Positions 3,282-56,470 of a DNA stretch of 64,000 nt are shown here, piece by piece; the first letter of the stretch is position 1, and every line of letters begins with the position of its first letter. A program made the translations under genes and the position numbers. Below the pieces are notes generated by a model, which was not told the DNA's origin, ran no database searches, and saw only the letters and a program-made list of their open reading frames with translations. This DNA is from Clostridia bacterium. GTDB lineage: Bacteria > Bacillota > Clostridia > Oscillospirales > Acutalibacteraceae. Where the stretch lies: contig JAFVIF010000076.1 of assembly GCA_017474125.1 (NCBI GenBank), forward strand, positions 9,739 through 73,738, in the 5' to 3' direction.

Positions 3282-4727
3282 TTATCTTACAATAACAGAC
3301 TCGATACCGAGAACGTCGGCAATTTTCTTAATTGTATCTGCGTGATGGCCTATGCCGAGTGCATAATGATGGGTGGGTCCCTCCATTACCCAACGCTTAA
3401 TAAATTCCTTGGTGGTAGGCTCAAAGAAGCCTCGGGTATTAGTGTTTCCCGTAGGAGGAATGGGGCCCTTTTTGGATTCACCCTCACCGATAACAAACTT
3501 AAAGCCGCCGTCGGCCTTTTGGGTAATACCGAGCATTGTAATAGGGCCTTCCTTGATTTTGAATTCAACGCTTGCGCCGCTTCCCGGCTTGCCGTGGAAT
3601 TTGGTAAGGCTACGTAAAACAGGCTTGCCCTCGGCAATGGCAATATGGTGAGGACCGTCGTGGCCTACCAAAATAAAGTCCTCCTTAAAATCGAAGGGAT
3701 GGAACTCGGCAAAGCTTCCGCCTATACCAAGCTTATCCATAATAAACATTGCTATAAGGGTTTTAATATCAAACTCACCGCACATTGGTGTGCCCTGCGC
3801 GTTAAGAATAGAGTTACCTGCTATAAAGGAGGTGGCAACCTCACGCTGAATGGAGCCTACCTCGCCCTCGTAATAATAGGCAAGACCCGACAGATTATAC
3901 TTTTCAACAAATCTGTCCAGGGCGGCGGCTCCCTTTGAAGCGTGAATCAAATCCTTTTCGGTAAGCTTCATTGTAACGGGGTCGCTTTTGGGGTCGGGCA
4001 TATCGAATTCTTCACAAATAATCTTTTTCTTTGCTTCTATTTCCTCTTCGGTCAAAGCAACGTATTCTCTCACAATATCTTCAATTTCCAAAAGAGGCAC
4101 GTGAACACCGAAGGCGGCGGAAATAGCGGTAGGATCGGCGTGCATATCGTACATTGCTTCAAGCACGTGTCCCATAAGAGCGAATCTCGCGCCCTTAAGT
4201 CCGTTAAGCACCTTAGCAATGTCGCACCATTCGGCAACCTGCTTTTCGGCCTCGGCATCGTTATAAAGACAGCCGATAATAACGTCCTTAACGGGGCGGC
4301 CGAGTCTTATGGCAACACCGGTAAATTCAGGCACCGAGCATATATTGTCGTTTTCAAGCTGCATATAGGTACAGGCCTTAGTATAATCCATAGCCATTAA
4401 GGGCTGTAAGGCAACGAGAACAATAGGTGCCTTGGTGTTCTGTACAATGGGTGCAAATACGCTTGAGGTGGCATAGGTAATCATATTACAGAAAATAACG
4501 TCAATTTTATCCCCTGCAATAAGATCGGCAACCTCAAAGGCGCGGGCATTACTGCCCACAATACCGTAGTCAACAACCTCTACGCCGTTTTTTTCTACAA
4601 GCTTTATTGTATCGGCGTGGTATTTTTTAAGAGAAGCCTCAAGACCCTCAAACTGGTCAAAATAAACTGCGTGCACTACCGAGAAAAATGCTATTCTTCC
4701 CTGACGCTTTACTTTTCTTTCTATCAT
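3282..4727 (-). CDS. L-arabinose/L-fucose isomerase family protein
   Basis: 481 aa. The N-terminal pattern (RIAFFSVVHAVYFDQFEG...DVIFCNMITYATSS...PIVLVALQP) is typical of the AraA/FucI-like isomerase superfamily. Confidence 0.7.
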   Translation of the reverse strand: MIERKVKRQGRIAFFSVVHAVYFDQFEGLEASLKKYHADTIKLVEKNGVEVVDYGIVGSNARAFEVADLIAGDKIDVIFCNMITYATSSVFAPIVQNTKAPIVLVALQPLMAMDYTKACTYMQLENDNICSVPEFTGVAIRLGRPVKDVIIGCLYNDAEAEKQVAEWCDIAKVLNGLKGARFALMGHVLEAMYDMHADPTAISAAFGVHVPLLEIEDIVREYVALTEEEIEAKKKIICEEFDMPDPKSDPVTMKLTEKDLIHASKGAAALDRFVEKYNLSGLAYYYEGEVGSIQREVATSFIAGNSILNAQGTPMCGEFDIKTLIAMFIMDKLGIGGSFAEFHPFDFKEDFILVGHDGPHHIAIAEGKPVLRSLTKFHGKPGSGASVEFKIKEGPITMLGITQKADGGFKFVIGEGESKKGPIPPTGNTNTRGFFEPTTKEFIKRWVMEGPTHHYALGIGHHADTIKKIADVLGIESVIVR

Positions 4728-5777: not shown

Positions 5778-7547
5778 TTGAAAAAAAGGATTTTTTCAAT
5801 TATTACAGCCGCTTTAATAATTGTTACAATGCTTGTTACCTCTTTGCCTGTTAACGCTTGGGTGCAATGGCTAAAGCCCAGTGACCTGAAGGGCAGTGAC
5901 TTTACCGACGTACCCGCCTTTGCCGCCGCTCTTGACGACGTTTTCGCAGGCGACGTTGATTTATTCACAAGCTCTTCCTTTACCAAGGAGGTTTCCCTTC
6001 CCTTAGGAAGCCGAATGAGTATGAACAACGCTTATCATATGAGAAGTGTAACCCGTAACGTAAAAACCTACGGCTGGACATGTTTTATTTATTCTAACGG
6101 TGCCTTTAACCGTCTTTTCGGTGAATACGTACACCGCGGCACCGGTCTTAAAAACTGTTACATAGCCGTTGGCAAGGGTGCTTCCAAAATGACCTATGAT
6201 CTGCTTGCAAATGCCAACATTAAAACCGGCGCCTATATCCGTACCTCGCCAAAATCCGACGGCTCCTACTACGGAAACGACGGACACTCTATGATTATTT
6301 TGGCCTATGATGAAAAGTATATTACCTACCTTGAGGGTAACGGTGACGGCAAGGGCTTAGTAAGAGTAACCAAGCGTACCTACTCCGAATTCAACTCGGC
6401 TCAGCTTACCGGCAGAGGCAGAAAAATCACACATATTGTTCAACCCACCGACGAATGGTTTAACGAGCTTTACGGCAACAGTCCCGAGGAAAACACCTAC
6501 ACCGTTTCCTACGACGCTAACGGCGGTTTTGGTAATATGGACTCCTGTACCGTACCCTATAACGGCGAAATTTCCCTTGCTTCAAATGGATTTGACCGCA
6601 ACGGCCACATTCTTTCGGGCTGGGCGCTTAAGCGCGATTACGACAACGCTTGGCTCACCGAGAACGGTTGGGTTAAGGAGGAAAGCCTTGGAGAGCTTTC
6701 TCCCACCACCTTTGCCACCGACGGTACAATTCCCCTTGATGCTTCCCTTATTAAGGACACCTACGGCAACGTAGCCTTTACCGCTTACGCCGTTTGGGCT
6801 GATTCTCCAAGACTGGAGCTTGCTTCGGTAACCGTTATTGACGACAGCTTTAAACGGGAATTTTATCCCATTGGCTCTCAAGGCTCTTTAAGCGGCGCAC
6901 AGCTTGAATTTACCTTTACCACCGGCGATAAGGTAAGGGTTACGGTTAATGACAGCTGTAACAACACGCTGCCACAAAGCTTCCGCCTTAAGGGCAACGA
7001 CTACAGCTTTTATATTGACAGCGATATAAAGGCAGAGGGCGACAACCCCTGCTACGTAAGAATAGAAAACTTTAAGGCTACTGTTATAAGCCTTTACGGC
7101 GGTAAATCCGTTAAGTCGGCTCGTATAGTATCCTCCCCTTCTGTTTCAACGGGAGAAAATGCCGAGGTTGAATTAACCTATTCCGACGGCACCACAGAAA
7201 CCATTGTCGCAACCGAATTTATTCCTAACGAAAGCCAAAGCGAGGCAATCGGAGGACTTATGAAAACCAACGGCGGCTTTGCAATAAGCTGGACCTACAG
7301 TGCAAAGGTAACCGATGACACAGTAACGGTAACCTTCCCCTGCGGCTTTACGAAAACGGCAGAAAACGGCGACTTTAATATGGACGGTCATTTCGACACT
7401 ACCGACCTCGCTTCCATTAAGCTGTTGCTTTCCTTCCTTAACGACGACCAGTATAACGCCTACTGTGCCGCCGACTTTAACGGTGACGGCGAGCTTTCTA
7501 CCGTTGACCTTGCAGCCTTAAAGCTTACCCTTGCAGGCGTTTATTAA
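5778..7547 (+). CDS. Secreted papain-like (Cys/His) hydrolase-domain protein with a Listeria-Bacteroides repeat and a C-terminal type I dockerin
   Basis: TTG start with a TAGGGAG RBS and a signal peptide (MKKRIFSIITAALIIVTMLVTSLPVNA). Candidate catalytic Cys (GWTCFIYS) and His (DGHSMIILAY). Flg_new-type repeat YTVSYDANGGFGNM...GHILSGWA. Dockerin Ca-loops DFNMDGHFDTTD and DFNGDGELSTVD. Confidence 0.8.
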   Translation: MKKRIFSIITAALIIVTMLVTSLPVNAWVQWLKPSDLKGSDFTDVPAFAAALDDVFAGDVDLFTSSSFTKEVSLPLGSRMSMNNAYHMRSVTRNVKTYGWTCFIYSNGAFNRLFGEYVHRGTGLKNCYIAVGKGASKMTYDLLANANIKTGAYIRTSPKSDGSYYGNDGHSMIILAYDEKYITYLEGNGDGKGLVRVTKRTYSEFNSAQLTGRGRKITHIVQPTDEWFNELYGNSPEENTYTVSYDANGGFGNMDSCTVPYNGEISLASNGFDRNGHILSGWALKRDYDNAWLTENGWVKEESLGELSPTTFATDGTIPLDASLIKDTYGNVAFTAYAVWADSPRLELASVTVIDDSFKREFYPIGSQGSLSGAQLEFTFTTGDKVRVTVNDSCNNTLPQSFRLKGNDYSFYIDSDIKAEGDNPCYVRIENFKATVISLYGGKSVKSARIVSSPSVSTGENAEVELTYSDGTTETIVATEFIPNESQSEAIGGLMKTNGGFAISWTYSAKVTDDTVTVTFPCGFTKTAENGDFNMDGHFDTTDLASIKLLLSFLNDDQYNAYCAADFNGDGELSTVDLAALKLTLAGVY

Positions 7548-22165: not shown

Positions 22166-22870
22166 TTATTTGTTAATCTCCGCAAGATAACCCGCCGTAA
22201 TAACACCAGACGGCAATGCAATTATTGCAATGCCAAAAGCAGAAGAGATCATTGTAACAATTCTACCTATTGTTGTTACTGGATAAATATCGCCATAACC
22301 AACAGTTGTTAATGAGATGGTCGCCCAATAAATAGCATCAAAAAATGTCTCAAATGATTCCGGCTCAACATTATATATTACAAGAGCAGAAACCAAAATA
22401 TAAGCAACTGCCATTGTCGCAACTGCGGATAAAACCTTTTTCTGTTTTTTAAACACGCTAGCTATAATATCGAAACTTTTTGAATATCGCAAAAACTTGA
22501 AAACACGCAACACCTTTAATGTCCTTAACAGTCTAAACAGTTTCAACAATCTAAAGCCATTATTCAAGACAGAAATAGAAGGCAATATGGAAACTAAATC
22601 AATAATGGCCATTGGTGTAATCGGATAGATAAAGAAAGAAACCACTGACTTTTTAATTTTGAAATCTGCAGTTATCAATCTCAAAAAGTAGTCTAAGATA
22701 AAAATGCTTACAGTTATGTAGTCTATCCACCGAAAAACGGCATTTGTCTCTTTGAAAGCAAGTGGAACAAGGCTTATAACGATAGTTGTCATCATTATAA
22801 AATCGTAAATATTACTCAACTTACTGCCGTTGTCTACCGGCTCAATCACTGAAAATACTTTCTTCCTCAT
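22166..22870 (-). CDS. Voltage-gated-type (6TM) potassium channel
   Basis: S4-like helix RLLKLFRLLRTLKVLRVFKFLR has a positive charge at every third residue. Pore signature TTVGYGD. There is no RCK/ligand domain. AGGTG RBS. Start is 3 nt after the upstream gene's stop. Confidence 0.85.
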   Translation of the reverse strand: MRKKVFSVIEPVDNGSKLSNIYDFIMMTTIVISLVPLAFKETNAVFRWIDYITVSIFILDYFLRLITADFKIKKSVVSFFIYPITPMAIIDLVSILPSISVLNNGFRLLKLFRLLRTLKVLRVFKFLRYSKSFDIIASVFKKQKKVLSAVATMAVAYILVSALVIYNVEPESFETFFDAIYWATISLTTVGYGDIYPVTTIGRIVTMISSAFGIAIIALPSGVITAGYLAEINK

Positions 22871-22873
22871 AAT

Positions 22874-23230
22874 TTACACCTGTTTTGATTTTATCGTTTT
22901 AAGTGATGAAATTAACATTCTGCGAATCGCTCCGCATTCGTTTTGAACATCATTATAAATATCCTTAGTCATGCAGCCCGTCTCAAAAAGAAGTTCTAAC
23001 CAATATTCAGTTTCATAACACTCTTTTTGGGCTATTTCGAGTTTTGAAATAAAATCTTTAGTTCCTTGTGCATACTGAGCTTCGTGTAAATTTGCTCCAA
23101 TAGAGGTCGCTGAGCGAAGCAACTGATTTATTAAAACGGATTCTTTATGATTTGTTTTCATATCGCGACAAAGAAAAACGGTTTTCTTTGCAAACTCTTT
23201 TGCCTTATCTCTTAAAATACTATCCGCCAT
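22874..23230 (-). CDS. Four-helix-bundle protein (23S rRNA intervening-sequence protein / Avd-like family)
   Basis: Start set at ATG 23230 (GAGGTGA RBS). ...LINQLLRSATSIGANLHEAQYAQGTKDFISKLEIAQKECYETEYWLELL... matches the family hallmark (Q-x-x-RS-x-x-SI-x-AN-x-x-E...DF...A-x-x-E-x-x-E-x-x-YWL). Confidence 0.8.
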   Translation of the reverse strand: MADSILRDKAKEFAKKTVFLCRDMKTNHKESVLINQLLRSATSIGANLHEAQYAQGTKDFISKLEIAQKECYETEYWLELLFETGCMTKDIYNDVQNECGAIRRMLISSLKTIKSKQV

Positions 23231-23280
23231 AGTTATCACCTCTAAATCTATTATACATAAAGGATGATAATCTTTCAAGT

Positions 23281-23455
23281 TATATTCCGCCTTTGTCGGA
23301 GTGATATTATTGCCTTACGTCAATAGTGATATTGAAACCTTGCGGTTTCAGTGGTATTTTATTCGCCAATAACTGCCGAAGGCAATATCACTTGGGCTTT
23401 AATCCAAATATCACTGCGTAGCAATATAACTCGCCGTCAGGCGAATAAAACTGTT
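23281..23455. repeat. Heptamer-punctuated mini-hairpin array, copy A
   Basis: Units of ~23-25 nt. Each is a distinct short stem-loop followed by GTGATAT (23301, 23326; GTGGTAT 23351) and, further right, by the reverse complement ATATCAC (23385, 23408; ATATAAC 23424). Positions 23414-23447 are 33/34 identical to 50294-50327. Confidence 0.7.
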
Positions 23456-49228: not shown

Positions 49229-49996
49229 ATGGATTTCACGAATAAAACAGCAATATCAACAGGCGCCGCAAGCGGTATGGGACTTCTTTTTGCGCAAAAT
49301 TTCGCCGACCTTTACGGAAACGTAGTTATGTGCGACATAAATGAAGAAGTGCTTAACGAAAAGGTTAAAGAAATTAACGCAAAGGGTAAAGGAAAAGCCG
49401 TTGGCGTAGTTTGTGACGTGCGTGATTATAATCAGGTTTGCGCCGCAAGAGATAAAGCTGTAACCGAATTCGGCAGTATTGACGTTATGGCAAACTTTGC
49501 AGGCGGATATGCGCTCAGAATGCTGAAGGTTGATACACAGCAGTATCCCGAATTTCCCGACGTGCCCATTGAGGTTTTCGATTGGGGACTTGACGTAAAC
49601 CTAAAGGGTCCCTTCTATTTTGCTCACGCTGTACTCAGCCAAATGAGAGAGCAGAAAAGCGGACTCATTATAAATATAGGTTCAATTTCAGGCGCCGAGG
49701 GCAGCTCGTTTGGAATGGAATACCCCACCGCCAAAGCGGGACTTATGTACGGACTTACAAAGTCTATTGCACAGTACGGCTCAAAGCACGGAATAAGATG
49801 TGTTTGTGTTTCCCCCGGACCTGTGCTCACCCGTGAAGCTATGGCGAATATGAAAACCCTTATGGGCAGAGCCGCCGAGCCGCAGGAAATAATTGATTTA
49901 TGCTTATTCATAGCATCTGATAAAGGACAGTTTATTAACGGCGAAAACATTATGATTGACGGCGGACGAAACGCCGCACCGCGCTGGTGCCGATAA
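49229..49996 (+). CDS. SDR family oxidoreductase
   Basis: TGAASGMG cofactor motif, a catalytic Y-x-x-x-K (YPTAKAG), and a PGPV motif. Confidence 0.85.
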   Translation: MDFTNKTAISTGAASGMGLLFAQNFADLYGNVVMCDINEEVLNEKVKEINAKGKGKAVGVVCDVRDYNQVCAARDKAVTEFGSIDVMANFAGGYALRMLKVDTQQYPEFPDVPIEVFDWGLDVNLKGPFYFAHAVLSQMREQKSGLIINIGSISGAEGSSFGMEYPTAKAGLMYGLTKSIAQYGSKHGIRCVCVSPGPVLTREAMANMKTLMGRAAEPQEIIDLCLFIASDKGQFINGENIMIDGGRNAAPRWCR

Positions 49997-50112
49997 AAGT
50001 GCGTTGTTCTTATCGGAGAAAATAGAATTCTTTTAAATTCAGCTAAGAACCGGCAAGTGCATTTGTAAGTACAAATGCATTTGGGCAGTAGCCCAAACCC
50101 ACTAACAACAGA

Positions 50113-50154
50113 AAAGAGAAGATTCGTATCATAACGAGTCTTCTCTTTCTTTTT
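50113..50154 (+). terminator. Intrinsic terminator, 117 nt downstream of the SDR gene
   Basis: AAAGAGAAGA ... TCTTCTCTTT followed by CTTTTTG. Confidence 0.7.
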
Positions 50155-50163
50155 GTCTGATAA

Positions 50164-50360
50164 GTGATATGCTGACTAAAGTCAGCGTGATATTTTCGCT
50201 TTGCGAAAGTGATATGAAACCTATCGGTTTCGTGATATTCTATTCGCCCATAAACTTGCGAAGCAAATATCACTCGGCGTAAGCCGAATAACACTGCGTT
50301 GCAATATAACTCGCCGTCAGGCGAATAGAGTTGCGTGATACTCTTAACGGAGTATCACGC
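50164..50360. repeat. Heptamer-punctuated mini-hairpin array, copy B
   Basis: GTGATAT at 50164, 50187, 50209 and 50232 (spacing 22-23 nt). Each is followed by a different perfect hairpin (GCTGAC-taaa-GTCAGC, TTTCGC-ttt-GCGAAA, GAAACC-tatc-GGTTTC). Further right come ATATCAC (50267), ATAACAC (50288) and ATATAAC (50304). The element ends in an 11-bp hairpin, GCGTGATACTC/GAGTATCACGC. Confidence 0.7.
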
Positions 50361-50382: not shown

Positions 50383-51960
50383 TTAGCCGAGAGACTGTTT
50401 TTTGCTTGTAACAACCTCGTGGTCGTAGCATTCAAATTTTTCATCAACCTTTTCGGGGAGAGTTTTCTGAGTCAGCAAGCTGACAATGGGGACTAAAATT
50501 AAACCGCCCACCATTGCGAATACACCCGAATAAAGGGAATTTGTAAATATAAAGCTGATTACGGGTATGCCTGCAGCCTTTATCCAGCCAAGGCTTACAC
50601 AAAGCTGAATTATTTCAAGACCTACGCCGAAAATAAAGCTTGCGGCAACCGCGGCCTTGGTAGTCTTTTTCCAGTAAAGACCGTACATAAAGGGGGCGAG
50701 GAAGGCGCCTGCAAGGGCACCCCACGAAACACCCATCATTTGAGCAATAAACATATTGTTCGACCAAACAGAATCCTTAAGAATGGCGATAATTGCGGAA
50801 ACGGCGATAAAGAATACTATAAAGAGTCGCATAATAAGTACGCTTCTTTTTTCGCTGATTTCCTTTTTTAAGCTCGGCTTTACAACATCAAGGGTAATGG
50901 TAGAAGCGGAGGTAAGCACGAGGGAGGAAAGAGTAGACATTGATGCCGACAGCACAAGCACTATAACGAGAGCAACGATAACGGGAGCTAATTCGCCGAG
51001 CATGGTAGGAACAACCTTATCGAAAAGGACCTTGCCGCCGTTTATAAAGCCGCTTGATACCATTTTATCTTCATATAAACGACCGAAGCCGCCGAGGAAA
51101 TAGCAACCGCCTGCAACTATAATAGCAAACAGGGTGGAAATTACGGTGCCCTTTTTAATGGAGGCCTCATCCTTTATAGAGTAGAACTTACCTACCATTT
51201 GAGGCAGTCCCCAGGTACCGAGCGAGGTAAGCATTACGACAAAGAAAAGGAATACGGGGTTGGGGCCGAACATAGCGGTATACTGCGTTCCTGCGCTAAC
51301 TCCCAAGGCTTCAACTGCGGCGTTAAAGCCGCCGTTTTCCATTAATACAGAGGCAATAACGGCAATGATACCCACAAGCATTATAACGCCCTGAATAAAA
51401 TCGTTAACGGCGGTAGCCATATAGCCGCCGAAAATTACGTAGATACCCGTAAGGATTGACATAACCACAACTATTACCCAGTAATCAACGGCAAAAACGT
51501 TATTGAAGAGAGAGGATAGTCCGTTATAGAGGGATGCGGTATAGGGAATGAGGAATATGAAGGTTATAAAGGAAGCCACTACCTTTAAGGTTTTGGAATC
51601 AAAACGCTTTTCAAAAAAGTCGGGCATTGTTTTACTGCCTAAGTGCTGTGTCATAACTCTTGTTCTTCTGCCCAGCACGCTCCAAGCAAGCAAGGAGCCG
51701 ATAAAGGCGTTACCTAAGCCAATCCAGGTGGAGGCAAGACCGAAGTTCCAGCCGAACTGCCCTGCATAGCCTACGAAGATAACAGCCGAAAAATAAGAGG
51801 TGCCGAAGGCGAAGGCGGTAAGCCACGGGCCTACGTTTCTGCCGCCCAGCACAAAGCCGTCAACACTTACCGCATTCCTTCTGCAATAAAATCCAACCCC
51901 TATCATAAGGCCGAAAAAGCAGAGTAGCAACGGTATTGTAATAATTACTGTAGTTGTCAT
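50383..51960 (-). CDS. Sodium:solute symporter (SSS) family transporter
   Basis: 525 aa with about 13 TM helices and an SSS-like pattern (GGRNVGPWLTAFAFGTSYFSA...). GAAAGGG RBS. Confidence 0.8.
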   Translation of the reverse strand: MTTTVIITIPLLLCFFGLMIGVGFYCRRNAVSVDGFVLGGRNVGPWLTAFAFGTSYFSAVIFVGYAGQFGWNFGLASTWIGLGNAFIGSLLAWSVLGRRTRVMTQHLGSKTMPDFFEKRFDSKTLKVVASFITFIFLIPYTASLYNGLSSLFNNVFAVDYWVIVVVMSILTGIYVIFGGYMATAVNDFIQGVIMLVGIIAVIASVLMENGGFNAAVEALGVSAGTQYTAMFGPNPVFLFFVVMLTSLGTWGLPQMVGKFYSIKDEASIKKGTVISTLFAIIVAGGCYFLGGFGRLYEDKMVSSGFINGGKVLFDKVVPTMLGELAPVIVALVIVLVLSASMSTLSSLVLTSASTITLDVVKPSLKKEISEKRSVLIMRLFIVFFIAVSAIIAILKDSVWSNNMFIAQMMGVSWGALAGAFLAPFMYGLYWKKTTKAAVAASFIFGVGLEIIQLCVSLGWIKAAGIPVISFIFTNSLYSGVFAMVGGLILVPIVSLLTQKTLPEKVDEKFECYDHEVVTSKKQSLG

Positions 51961-56167: not shown

Positions 56168-56203
56168 ATTTCTTGTCTTAAAGACGTTTTAAATGCGATG
56201 ATC

Positions 56204-56470
56204 AGAAAGTAGTAAATTCGGAAAAGCTTTTAAGAGAGTTGTCGTTCGGTGCGAGACAATAGGCAAGTACGTTTTGAATTCATTCTGTTAGCAGTGCACT
56301 GAACTAAGCTTTGCTTAAAGTAGGCTGCAACGGGTGTTCCCGTAACAGAACTAAGGTATGTTAGTACCTGAAAAGGCCGTTACCGTGAGATAACGGCGAA
56401 CTGAGGTGGTACCACGGGATTTCGATTTTCTCGTCCTCTGTATTCTTATCGGAATGCAGAGGATTTTTTT
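56204..56470 (+). promoter_or_regulatory. T-box riboswitch leader with a UUC (Phe) specifier, controlling paaK-ACT
   Basis: Stem I spans 56204-56293 (TGC-GATGAT-CAGAA-AGTAG ... GAA-TTC-A-TTCTG-TTA-GCA). AGAGAG box and GGTGCGAGAC distal loop are present. T-box sequence AACTGAGGTGGTACCACGGG lies at 56399-56418. A terminator stem at 56435-56462 is followed by T7. Confidence 0.85.

Follow-up and report, generated by a model that had tools for sequence, protein, structure and literature searches.

A Gut-1-containing two-arm hairpin element and its four-helix-bundle gene partner in gut Clostridia

Introduction

What accounts for an ordered array of hairpins that fills the space between two bacterial genes? 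The question is raised by a stretch of 64,000 nucleotides from a Clostridia bacterium of the Acutalibacteraceae (GenBank assembly GCA_017474125.1, contig JAFVIF010000076.1, positions 9,739 to 73,738, forward strand), referred to here in its full length as the window. Between a gene for a PocR/AraC-family regulator and a gene for a 118-amino-acid four-helix-bundle (4HB) protein lies an element of about 175 nt, copy A, composed of short hairpins of differing sequence that are separated by a conserved heptamer; a second copy, B, is found elsewhere in the window. We report that this element has a defined two-arm anatomy, that its hairpins covary, that it lies in a fixed polarity to the genes upstream of it, that the 4HB gene is near-obligately linked to it, and that element and gene together form a module. 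Our preferred explanation, to which we give an even chance of being correct, is that copy A is a hairpin scaffold without an open reading frame (ORF), similar to an intervening sequence (IVS) of rRNA, that serves as the cis partner of the adjacent pentameric, Avd-like 4HB protein, and that copy B is a solo derivative of it.

Results

Anatomy of the element

Copy A matched an nhmmer profile built from 38 full elements with 119.9 bits over profile positions 8-185. We use the term G strand for the strand whose short arm reads GTGAWAT, which is also the Rfam orientation; for copies A and B this is the minus strand. The parts of copy A are as follows.

23279-23453, minus strand: copy A, a complete composite element with short arm, box X and long arm in 5' to 3' order on the G strand
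23380-23453, minus strand: short arm, the portion modelled by Rfam as Gut-1, with hairpins X' (23431-23444), tgcgtagca (23415-23423) and ttgggctttaatccaa (23392-23407)
23357-23367: box X, TTTTATTCGCC on the plus strand, 11 nt, 100% complementary to 23440-23450 (inverted repeat I2)
23440-23450: box X', GGCGAATAAAA on the plus strand, partner of box X and also the outer strand of hairpin X'
23279-23357, minus strand: long arm, with hairpins at 23286-23300, 23308-23325 and 23333-23350

When the plus strand is read, the long arm contains the heptamers GTTATAT at 23279, GTGATAT at 23301 and 23326, and GTGGTAT at 23351 (ATATCAC-type on the G strand), each of which precedes a perfect or near-perfect hairpin. 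Beyond the centre at 23357-23367 follow hairpins at 23374-84, 23392-407, 23415-23 and 23431-44, now punctuated by ATATCAC at 23385 and 23408 and by ATATAAC at 23424; on the minus strand, the short arm carries GTTATAT/GTGATAT between its hairpins. Pairing of X with X' on the G strand closes the short arm as a helix, P1, which competes with the local hairpin X'.

These heptamer positions are exactly those listed in the original prediction, apart from the additional degenerate GTTATAT at 23279, and all six stems named there were recovered along with tGCGTAGCa at 23415-23423. Its description of a quasi-palindrome whose halves carry GTGATAT and ATATCAC, respectively, applies to both copies. The array it placed at 23281-23455 is real, but the element runs from 23279 to 23453, and the 4HB gene starts with the ATG at 23230 rather than with a TTG at 23278, the interval 23231-23278 containing a consensus promoter and a ribosome-binding site (RBS). 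The 34-nt segment 23414-23447 is, as had been noted, identical at 33 of 34 positions to 50294-50327; the latter lies within a full second copy of the element.

50165-50335, minus strand: copy B, a complete ORF-less 'solo' element (nhmmer 105.8 bits)
50333-50360: extra hairpin GCGTGATACTC/GAGTATCACGC bordering copy B on its 5' (G-strand) side, 11 nt, 100% complementary (inverted repeat I3)
50105-50156: hairpin with flanking A and T runs (inverted repeat I1), which terminates the convergent short-chain dehydrogenase/reductase (SDR) gene (49229-49996, plus strand)

Copy B has the architecture of copy A over the whole element of about 175 nt, well beyond the 34-nt match, and a search of the window with the element profile returned only these two copies. 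The same element with the same flank as copy B was present in two of the loci fetched for comparison, which are cited here by L numbers (L029 and L095). The extra hairpin at the edge of copy B, also found in L029, occupies the site at which most relatives have a terminator-like hairpin. The hairpin at 50105-50156 would also end minus-strand transcripts that had crossed copy B.

The heptamer is overrepresented in the window, with 16 exact copies of GTGATAT compared to 4.2 expected and a maximum of 8 in 100 shuffles; 9 of the 16 fall in copies A and B. A symmetric terminator-like hairpin at 1085-1112 of the window, aaaaaaatcgGTGATATCACcgattttttt, has a stem in which the heptamer and its complement are fused as a 10-nt palindrome.

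Relationship to the Gut-1 RNA

A cmscan search of Rfam matched Gut-1 (RF01706), which has a curated gathering score of 50 bits, on both arms of both copies. The match on the plus strand of copy B (50162-50243) scored 51.7 bits and exceeds this threshold. Below it were the minus strand of copy B (50262-50333; 45.5 bits), the short arm of copy A on the minus strand (46.2 bits, E=3.8e-8, model positions 1-77 of 77) and the long arm of copy A on the plus strand, a weak match at 27.6 bits. Homologous elements in 20 loci had short arms that scored 54-88 bits. The original prediction held that the array fitted nothing catalogued and named a match to an Rfam RNA as grounds for giving this up; with both copies matching Gut-1, the claim of novelty fails. 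The only other match in the Rfam scan of the window was a T-box leader at 56189-56441 on the plus strand (RF00230; 119.9 bits against a gathering score of 93), which is unrelated to the element; no rRNA was found.

Gut-1 was described from 43 representatives, all from human gut metagenomes, and was called a probable non-coding RNA (ncRNA) unaffiliated with mRNAs, with no function assigned (Weinberg et al. 2010, PMC2864571). We found no later paper on Gut-1 in the literature searched. The window arms resemble Gut-1 in having three short hairpins of free sequence split by GUGAAAU-type linkers (GUGAUAU in the window, GUGAAAU in Gut-1) and can be aligned to all 77 nt of the model, and the relatives recovered in our searches likewise belong to gut, as well as rumen, Clostridia. 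The Rfam entry differs in that it comprises the short arm only, as a stand-alone 'Gene; sRNA', whereas the conserved unit is about 175 nt long and has, in addition, a long arm in inverted orientation and a helix formed over a long range. The fixed place after genes and tRNAs and the constant protein-coding partner also depart from the Gut-1 description. No promoter precedes the motif, which abuts a stop codon, a tRNA end or a T-run, and it is always part of a larger unit cis-linked to a protein gene, at odds with an independent ncRNA gene. The Rfam model represents half of a conserved unit and probably assigns it the wrong gene type. In the literature searched we encountered neither the composite element nor its polarity nor the near-obligate partnership with the 4HB gene.

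Conservation of structure

In an alignment of 39 relatives, 93.0% of the cells at 28 predicted pairs contained standard pairs, compared to 58.4% in shuffles and 33-46% when the partners were slid. The covariation score was 0.813 against 0.215 for shuffled alignments, none of 500 shuffles scoring as high, and changes had occurred on both sides in 26 of the 28 pairs. Covariation in the hairpins, which the original prediction had suggested as a check, is therefore borne out. RNAalifold, applied to the 39 elements, chose the long-range X'/X helix in addition to the local hairpins; the nine pairs of this helix were 99.1% paired, and seven of them had changed on both sides. A set of 253 unique spacer hairpins was approximately 95% Watson-Crick. 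Folding z-scores relative to shuffled sequences were -4.3, -4.1 and -6.0 (copies A and B).

Linkage to the four-helix-bundle gene

The gene that follows copy A, the module to which both belong and the promoter between them are as follows.

22874-23230, minus strand: 4HB protein gene, 118 amino acids, with RBS GAGGTG at 23237-23242
22874-23453, minus strand: conserved module of element, promoter and 4HB ORF, about 580 nt
23250-23278, minus strand: sigma-A-type promoter TTGAAA-N17-TATAAT, 11 of 12 positions matching, which abuts the last long-arm heptamer and reads into the 4HB gene

The 4HB protein matched PF05635 (23S_rRNA_IVP) with 93.8 bits and TIGR02436 ('four helix bundle protein') with 105.3 bits, and its closest solved structure was PDB 2RLD (E=9.7e-29), which has five chains. 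The neighbours of the pair formed by copy A and the 4HB gene are the PocR/AraC regulator gene and an ion-transport gene (22166-22870, PF00520). The ATG of the latter lies 3 nt after the 4HB stop codon, with the Shine-Dalgarno sequence AGGTG inside the last 4HB codons (22870-22876), and for this reason the cassette appears to be translationally coupled to the host gene.

Homology between loci is limited to the element, the promoter where there is one, and the ORF. In blastn comparisons with the fetched loci, homology started at 23453 and ended at 22879-22896 (L243, L016, L045, L014, L272 and others) and the flanks were unrelated; they differed between loci and included various tRNAs, GroEL and AraC. 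Among the matches listed from the genome scan, 9 of 12 4HB genes directly followed an element, and ORF-less copies outnumbered 4HB-linked ones about 6:1.

We also performed the reverse test, a metagenome scan with the alignment of the 4HB protein alone, which yielded 80 loci. Many of these represent the same locus resampled, with at least 12 distinct contexts. A match to the element profile was present in 65 of the 80, nearly always just upstream and on the same strand, a few of the 65 being weak or cut by a contig end. Before the element there was usually a gene for tRNA-Arg, Tyr, Gln, Asn, Cys, Val or Ser. As for the 15 loci with no profile match, nine had less than 150 nt of upstream sequence, five had the same architecture with other heptamers, and one was rearranged in the long arm. 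This last locus (L267, near position 1000) carries the 4HB module of L245 with the upstream part replaced by coding sequence, the breakpoint lying in the long arm beside a heptamer; the cause is a rearrangement or, alternatively, a chimera made during assembly at the repeat. Where enough upstream sequence is available, virtually all close homologues of the 4HB gene thus have such an element directly before them, a near-obligate linkage. The original prediction overlooked both this link and the fixed polarity to upstream genes and tRNAs. No gene was conserved downstream of the 4HB gene, where neighbours were diverse. A PADLOC search with three 4HB proteins returned no families at E<=0.01, and a known anti-phage defence system was set aside on this basis.

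Position and polarity

The element has a fixed polarity to the gene before it. For 19 of 65 elements, a tRNA gene, invariably on the same strand, ends 24-39 nt ahead of the element, and many tRNA identities are represented. Counting protein genes as well, 35 upstream neighbours (17 of them tRNAs) run in the same direction as the element and two diverge from it. Copy A begins 2 nt after the stop codon of the AraC-family regulator gene, and copy B has on one side the stop codon of a sodium:solute symporter gene (50383-51960, minus strand) and on the other the terminator that it has in common with the convergent SDR gene. The element is usually preceded by an A-run, a hairpin and a T-run, and 28 of the 39 sequences in an alignment of elements (A2) begin with four or more T.

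A promoter matching at 9 or more of 12 positions abuts the last heptamer on the G strand in 24 of 86 non-identical elements, compared to 4 in shuffles, whereas no promoter was found on the opposite strand of any of the 86. In eight loci (L087, L244, L297, L306, L294, L284, L292 and L302) only an RBS and an ATG follow the last heptamer, and in L294 the sole promoter found lies upstream of the tRNA. These RBS-only junctions, the promoter of L294 and the placement of copies A and B are signs of transcription through the element. The promoter/RBS stretch (…TCTTGCACCTCC…TTTTATGCTATACT…AGGCGGTGA) is kept after the long arm in L030, L109, L069 and L083, with differing first codons downstream; the outward promoter may travel with the element.

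Two side observations concern the tRNAs. T-arm-like GGTTCGAA fragments occur after the long arm in L026, L034, L037, L048, L111 and L074, some of them followed by CCA and a terminator. An origin of the element from tRNA or by duplication of an att site was rejected, as ARAGORN and Rfam call no tRNA in these fragments and there is no consistent repeat of the tRNA 3' end. Loci L278 and L272 (near 2239) are 98% identical for 3.1 kb downstream and diverge exactly at the CCA of tRNA-Tyr. This breakpoint was rejected as an element boundary because the homology continues for 3.1 kb downstream; it points to a rearrangement, or to the insertion of an island, at the 3' end of the tRNA, beside the element.

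Distribution and heptamer variants

We scanned one genome per species for three GTGAWAT heptamers at a spacing of 14-19 nt and obtained at least 120 loci. Among the matches listed, most were from metagenome-assembled genomes (MAGs) of gut and rumen Clostridia (Oscillospiraceae, Acutalibacteraceae, Ruminococcaceae and Christensenellaceae), and in about 30 of 120 loci no more than about 200 nt separated the array from a true contig end. Contigs L038, L074 and L094 hold nearly identical duplicates at distances of a few kb. Both features fit a multi-copy repeat. The profile of 38 elements found 65 full-length copies among the matches listed and in the window, in agreement with the predicted membership of a dispersed family. 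Matches in other phyla were mostly ordinary tandem repeats rather than hairpin arrays, and nine non-Clostridial loci were discarded as such (L009, L018, L035, L041, L054, L061, L076, L106 and L118). One of these, L035 (5399-5635, a Scytonematopsis MAG), is a long tandem array in which AGYCC follows GTGAAAT, with a 12-13-nt period and no hairpins, probably an unrelated cyanobacterial short tandem repeat.

On the G strand, the consensus opens with CAAC/CAGT and a degenerate heptamer, followed by hairpin X'. The short arm continues with two to three hairpins of 9-16 nt, each preceded by GTGAWAT; then come box X, complementary to the 5' strand of X', and the long arm of three 15-18-nt hairpins split by ATWTCAC. 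Conserved 7-nt punctuation with variable self-complementary inserts, as first described for copy A, is thus a property of its relatives as well. Elements differ in their heptamer, yet the two arms always carry reverse complements of each other; nine such variant pairs were seen.

Pairs 1-5: GTGAAAT/ATTTCAC, GTGATAT/ATATCAC, ATGAAAT/ATTTCAT, ATGATAT/ATATCAT, GTGATGT/ACATCAC
Pairs 6-9: GTGAAGT/ACTTCAC, GTTATGA/TCATAAC, GTTAAGA/TCTTAAC, GCTAAAT/ATTTAGC

A single variant is used throughout in 123 of 126 elements, and two variants occur on one contig in L109 and L305. Arrays of related appearance were seen in two further loci. In L003 (2250-3400 and 5750-6100), an Akkermansia MAG, a unit of about 480 nt is tandemly duplicated, with two direct hairpin arrays, GTGAAAT then RCGAGAT; separately, a 4HB gene (6162-6518) has upstream of it an inverted hairpin array with GATATAA/TTATATC. 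L005 has two copies of a unit at 3440-3900 that consists of a hairpin array punctuated by ATTTCAC and, after it, an ATGATGC array, direct and not inverted.

Several alternative identities were rejected. The element is not a CRISPR array, as the original prediction had already concluded: the repeats are 7 nt long, compared to direct repeats of 23-47 nt with unique spacers in CRISPR arrays, the 'spacers' are palindromic and the arrays are inverted. No cas genes were present among the six ORFs next to copies A and B, although no cas search was made. Nor is it a plain terminator. A plasmid origin, an origin of transfer (oriT) and a single-strand origin (sso) were rejected for the lack of any match to copy A at E<=0.01 among 72,556 plasmids, and a phage element on the finding of one weak match in 50,697 phage records and of true elements in 5 of 120 pattern matches on viral contigs.

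Variant cassettes and resemblance to rRNA intervening sequences

In some cassettes the arms are distributed around the ORF. In L289 the short arm lies before the ORF and the long arm after it, in L297 full elements lie on both sides, and in L292, L294 and L308 a further arm after the ORF is followed directly by the RBS of the next gene. Distant homologues, Ignavibacteria-like and with 16% identity to the window 4HB protein, are single genes placed between the genes of one operon: between macA and macB (twice), between two genes for resistance-nodulation-division (RND) pumps, between 3-hydroxyacyl-CoA dehydrogenase and acyl-CoA dehydrogenase, and between isocitrate dehydrogenase and aconitase. 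These distant cassettes have four to seven plain tandem heptamers GT[GC]AAAn upstream and the reverse complements downstream. Significant inverted repeats of 24-40 nt surround the ORF in 8 of 9 distant cassettes, and with arm-flanked cassettes included, 9 of 10 have inverted repeats of 24-73 nt (alignment scores 13-26 against shuffle maxima of 10-14.5). In L336 the terminal stem is present in both the minimum-free-energy and the centroid fold. L336, an environmental contig, also has two PF05635 genes (1001-1354 and 2167-2354) flanking a single CTP_transf_3 gene in one operon.

The ORFs of rRNA IVSs were reportedly described in 1993 by Ralph and McClelland. The IVS of Coxiella has a 28-bp terminal stem that is cut by RNase III and encloses an S23p ORF, with neither an origin nor a function assigned (PMC4990558). 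The distant cassettes match the layout of the 23S rRNA IVSs of Coxiella and Leptospira. PF05635 genes have also been reported inside cas operons and in rRNA insertions of the candidate phyla radiation, with no function assigned. The element and its gene share with such IVSs the PF05635/S23p protein family, represented in the window by 22874-23230; inverted repeats able to form a long stem, which in L289 and the Ignavibacteria-like cassettes enclose the ORF in exactly this way; the coexistence of ORF-containing and ORF-less forms; and an association with genes for stable RNAs. They differ in that the element is not inside an rRNA gene but after tRNA genes, after protein genes or within operons, in that both arms lie upstream of the ORF in the window, so that the ORF is not enclosed, and in having periodic heptamer arrays with intercalated hairpins in place of the simple stem of an IVS.

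Discussion

Because the heptamers of the two arms are complementary, a strand of the element can fold into a rod. We propose that the heptamers form 7-bp helices in this rod, with the variable hairpins as its branches, and that in an alternative fold P1, formed by box X' with box X, may close the short arm. The rod would correspond to the stem of terminal inverted repeats around the ORF of a 23S rRNA IVS, and the distant 4HB cassettes would share this type of stem. The folded nucleic acid would be what the cell acts upon, most likely as RNA produced by read-through from the upstream gene or tRNA. One actor could be the pentameric 4HB protein, binding the fold much as Avd grips a stem-loop with flipped-out bases; another could be a double-strand-specific RNase that frees the cassette from the host transcript. 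We infer RNA as the active form, binding by the protein and processing of the transcript.

A precedent for the protein is Avd of diversity-generating retroelements (DGRs), the sole member of the family with a known activity. In the Avd pentamer all five protomers take part in binding an 11-bp stem-loop of the DGR RNA, with flipped-out bases (bioRxiv 10.1101/2023.10.23.563531). In both cases a homologous pentameric 4HB protein is encoded beside a conserved stem-loop that is free in sequence and kept in structure. In DGRs this stem-loop is bound and there is one of it, whereas here there are many hairpins and binding is inferred. The layout is not that of a DGR, since the 4HB gene is flanked by the PocR/AraC regulator and ion-transport ORFs and the neighbours of its homologues are diverse. 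In the window, the genes directly on either side of the 4HB gene do not encode a reverse transcriptase, and no template/variable repeat pair was seen in the sequence read around the element, although a dedicated search of the whole window was made for neither.

Several observations weigh against a scaffold acting as RNA. Helices of 7 bp broken by junctions are not classical RNase III substrates. When wobble pairs were counted on the G strand, G.T (18) was no more frequent than A.C (16) in about 1170 pairs; an asymmetry in wobble pairs was thus rejected as a pointer to the transcribed strand, which it leaves undecided, and its absence counts against a simple RNA. GNA/GNRA loops, literal GCGAAGC mini-hairpins included, occur on the ATWTCAC strand of each arm. 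Together, stems nearly free of wobble pairs and loops of this kind fit selection on DNA or on both strands better than selection on RNA from one strand. Most copies lie directly 3' of an intrinsic-terminator-like hairpin and T-run (28 of 39 in alignment A2, a placement that rests on inspection of the alignment and flanks and not on automated detection), and elements abutted by a promoter, between a quarter and a third of all, would sit in poorly transcribed spacer. The heptamer data fit recognition by a protein and simple arm-to-arm complementarity alike, and a correlation of heptamer type with protein clade could be due to shared descent.

Much of this evidence would be accommodated if the element were a repeat that acts as DNA, like a repetitive extragenic palindrome (REP), a REPIN or a miniature inverted-repeat transposable element (MITE), its hairpins forming in single-stranded DNA or cruciforms, its heptamers being recognition or nicking sites for an enzyme encoded elsewhere, the 4HB gene a passenger or accessory, and solo copies such as B non-autonomous. 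The near-perfect Watson-Crick stems with equal G.T and A.C, and the C-G-closed GNA triloops that each arm has on its strand reading ATWTCAC, favour this, as do the multiple copies with arrays near contig ends (about 30 of the 120 loci among the matches listed), the nearly identical copies at distances of a few kb on L038, L074 and L094, the many contexts with sharp homology boundaries, the 6:1 excess of ORF-less over 4HB-linked copies in the genome sample and the many copies that lie between a terminator and a promoter. We take it as a serious rival but nevertheless consider it unlikely. No transposase, HUH or recombinase gene was linked in the loci inspected, the sole constant neighbour being a 118-amino-acid 4HB protein with no known catalytic fold, and the arms are inverted repeats around whose duplicated copies in L038 and L074 no direct repeat or target-site duplication was visible. 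The hairpin 'alleles' are position-specific across species and copy B keeps its place in L029 and L095, which looks like conserved paralogues rather than recent copy-paste. A polarity of 35 to 2 is not expected for a near-palindromic MITE, and copy A had no match among the 72,556 plasmids, while only 5 of the 120 viral pattern matches were true elements. The REP, BIME and REPIN sequences of E. coli and Pseudomonas are extragenic, multi-copy pairs of inverted palindromes, and the gene for the RAYT, a Y1 HUH transposase, is flanked by the repeats. The element is like them extragenic and multi-copy, with inverted palindromic units that have short conserved flanking motifs, a cognate gene flanked by repeats, and possibly several repeat types per genome. 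In REPs, however, the palindrome is conserved and has a 5' GTAG-type tetranucleotide, whereas here 253 hairpins differ and only the 7-nt linker is conserved, and the partner is a 118-amino-acid helical bundle instead of a Y1 HUH transposase; no RAYT gene was present beside elements in the fetched loci (whole genomes were not searched), the flanked gene being that of the 4HB protein. The attC sites of integrons are palindromes of conserved structure and variable sequence, delimited by 7-nt core and inverse-core sites and joined to single-gene cassettes. Structure-kept variable palindromes, 7-nt sites and single-gene cassettes in the orientation of the host recur here, but GTTRRRY does not describe the heptamers, each site has several hairpins, and the loci examined showed neither an integrase nor attI.

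Two other explanations are less likely. The element could be a double-stranded DNA module at the boundary of transcription units, comprising a terminator, a structured or protein-bound insulator and an outward promoter, with the heptamers as operators for the 4HB protein or another factor. The common order of terminator-like hairpin, element and consensus promoter with its -35 box abutting the last heptamer speaks for such a module, as do the promoter of copy A (TTGAAA-N17-TATAAT, 11 of 12) and the promoter/RBS stretch kept in L030, L109, L069 and L083 in front of differing coding sequences. It would leave the compensatory changes in the hairpin spacers unexplained, however, and the heptamer spacing of 16-26 bp is not in phase with the DNA helix; moreover, 62 of 86 copies, including copy B between convergent genes, have no downstream promoter, and in several cases nothing but an RBS separates the element from the 4HB gene. 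We regard this explanation as improbable. We regard as slightly less probable still that the element is a free-standing, trans-acting small RNA (sRNA) with its own promoter, the identity under which it is labelled in Rfam. Rfam and Weinberg (2010) class Gut-1 as a probable ncRNA unaffiliated with mRNAs, the structural covariation is strong, and the end hairpin with its A-run and T-run could terminate a transcript of the opposite strand. Yet no promoter precedes the Gut-1 arm, which starts right after a T-run or stop codon, and no consistent one reads the opposite strand (0 of 86); the Rfam model is half of the conserved unit, the cis linkage to one gene family is near-obligate, and there is no excess of G-U pairs.

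The scaffold with its cis-encoded 4HB partner suggests a broader hypothesis, which we put forward tentatively and rate at somewhat below an even chance. The PF05635 4HB proteins and the inverted arrays of GTGAAA-type heptamers, plain or hairpin-bearing, may constitute one widespread, previously unrecognised cassette, selfish or domesticated, of which the 23S rRNA IVS would be the rRNA-resident form and Gut-1 the ORF-less, tRNA-linked form in gut Clostridia. The pentamer would recognise the heptamer/hairpin scaffold of its own cassette and of solo copies, perhaps controlling their processing, expression or spread.

Gut-1 has been in Rfam since 2010 with neither a function nor a known organism, and PF05635/S23p has had no function outside DGRs since 1993. 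If the two are partners, both puzzles reduce to a 118-amino-acid protein and a 175-nt nucleic acid, for which the heptamer variants would be natural specificity variants. The linkage of the 4HB gene to the element helps to explain the occurrence of PF05635 genes inside unrelated operons, such as macA-macB, RND pumps and cas loci, and a class of repeat that fragments the assemblies of gut Clostridia is now identified.

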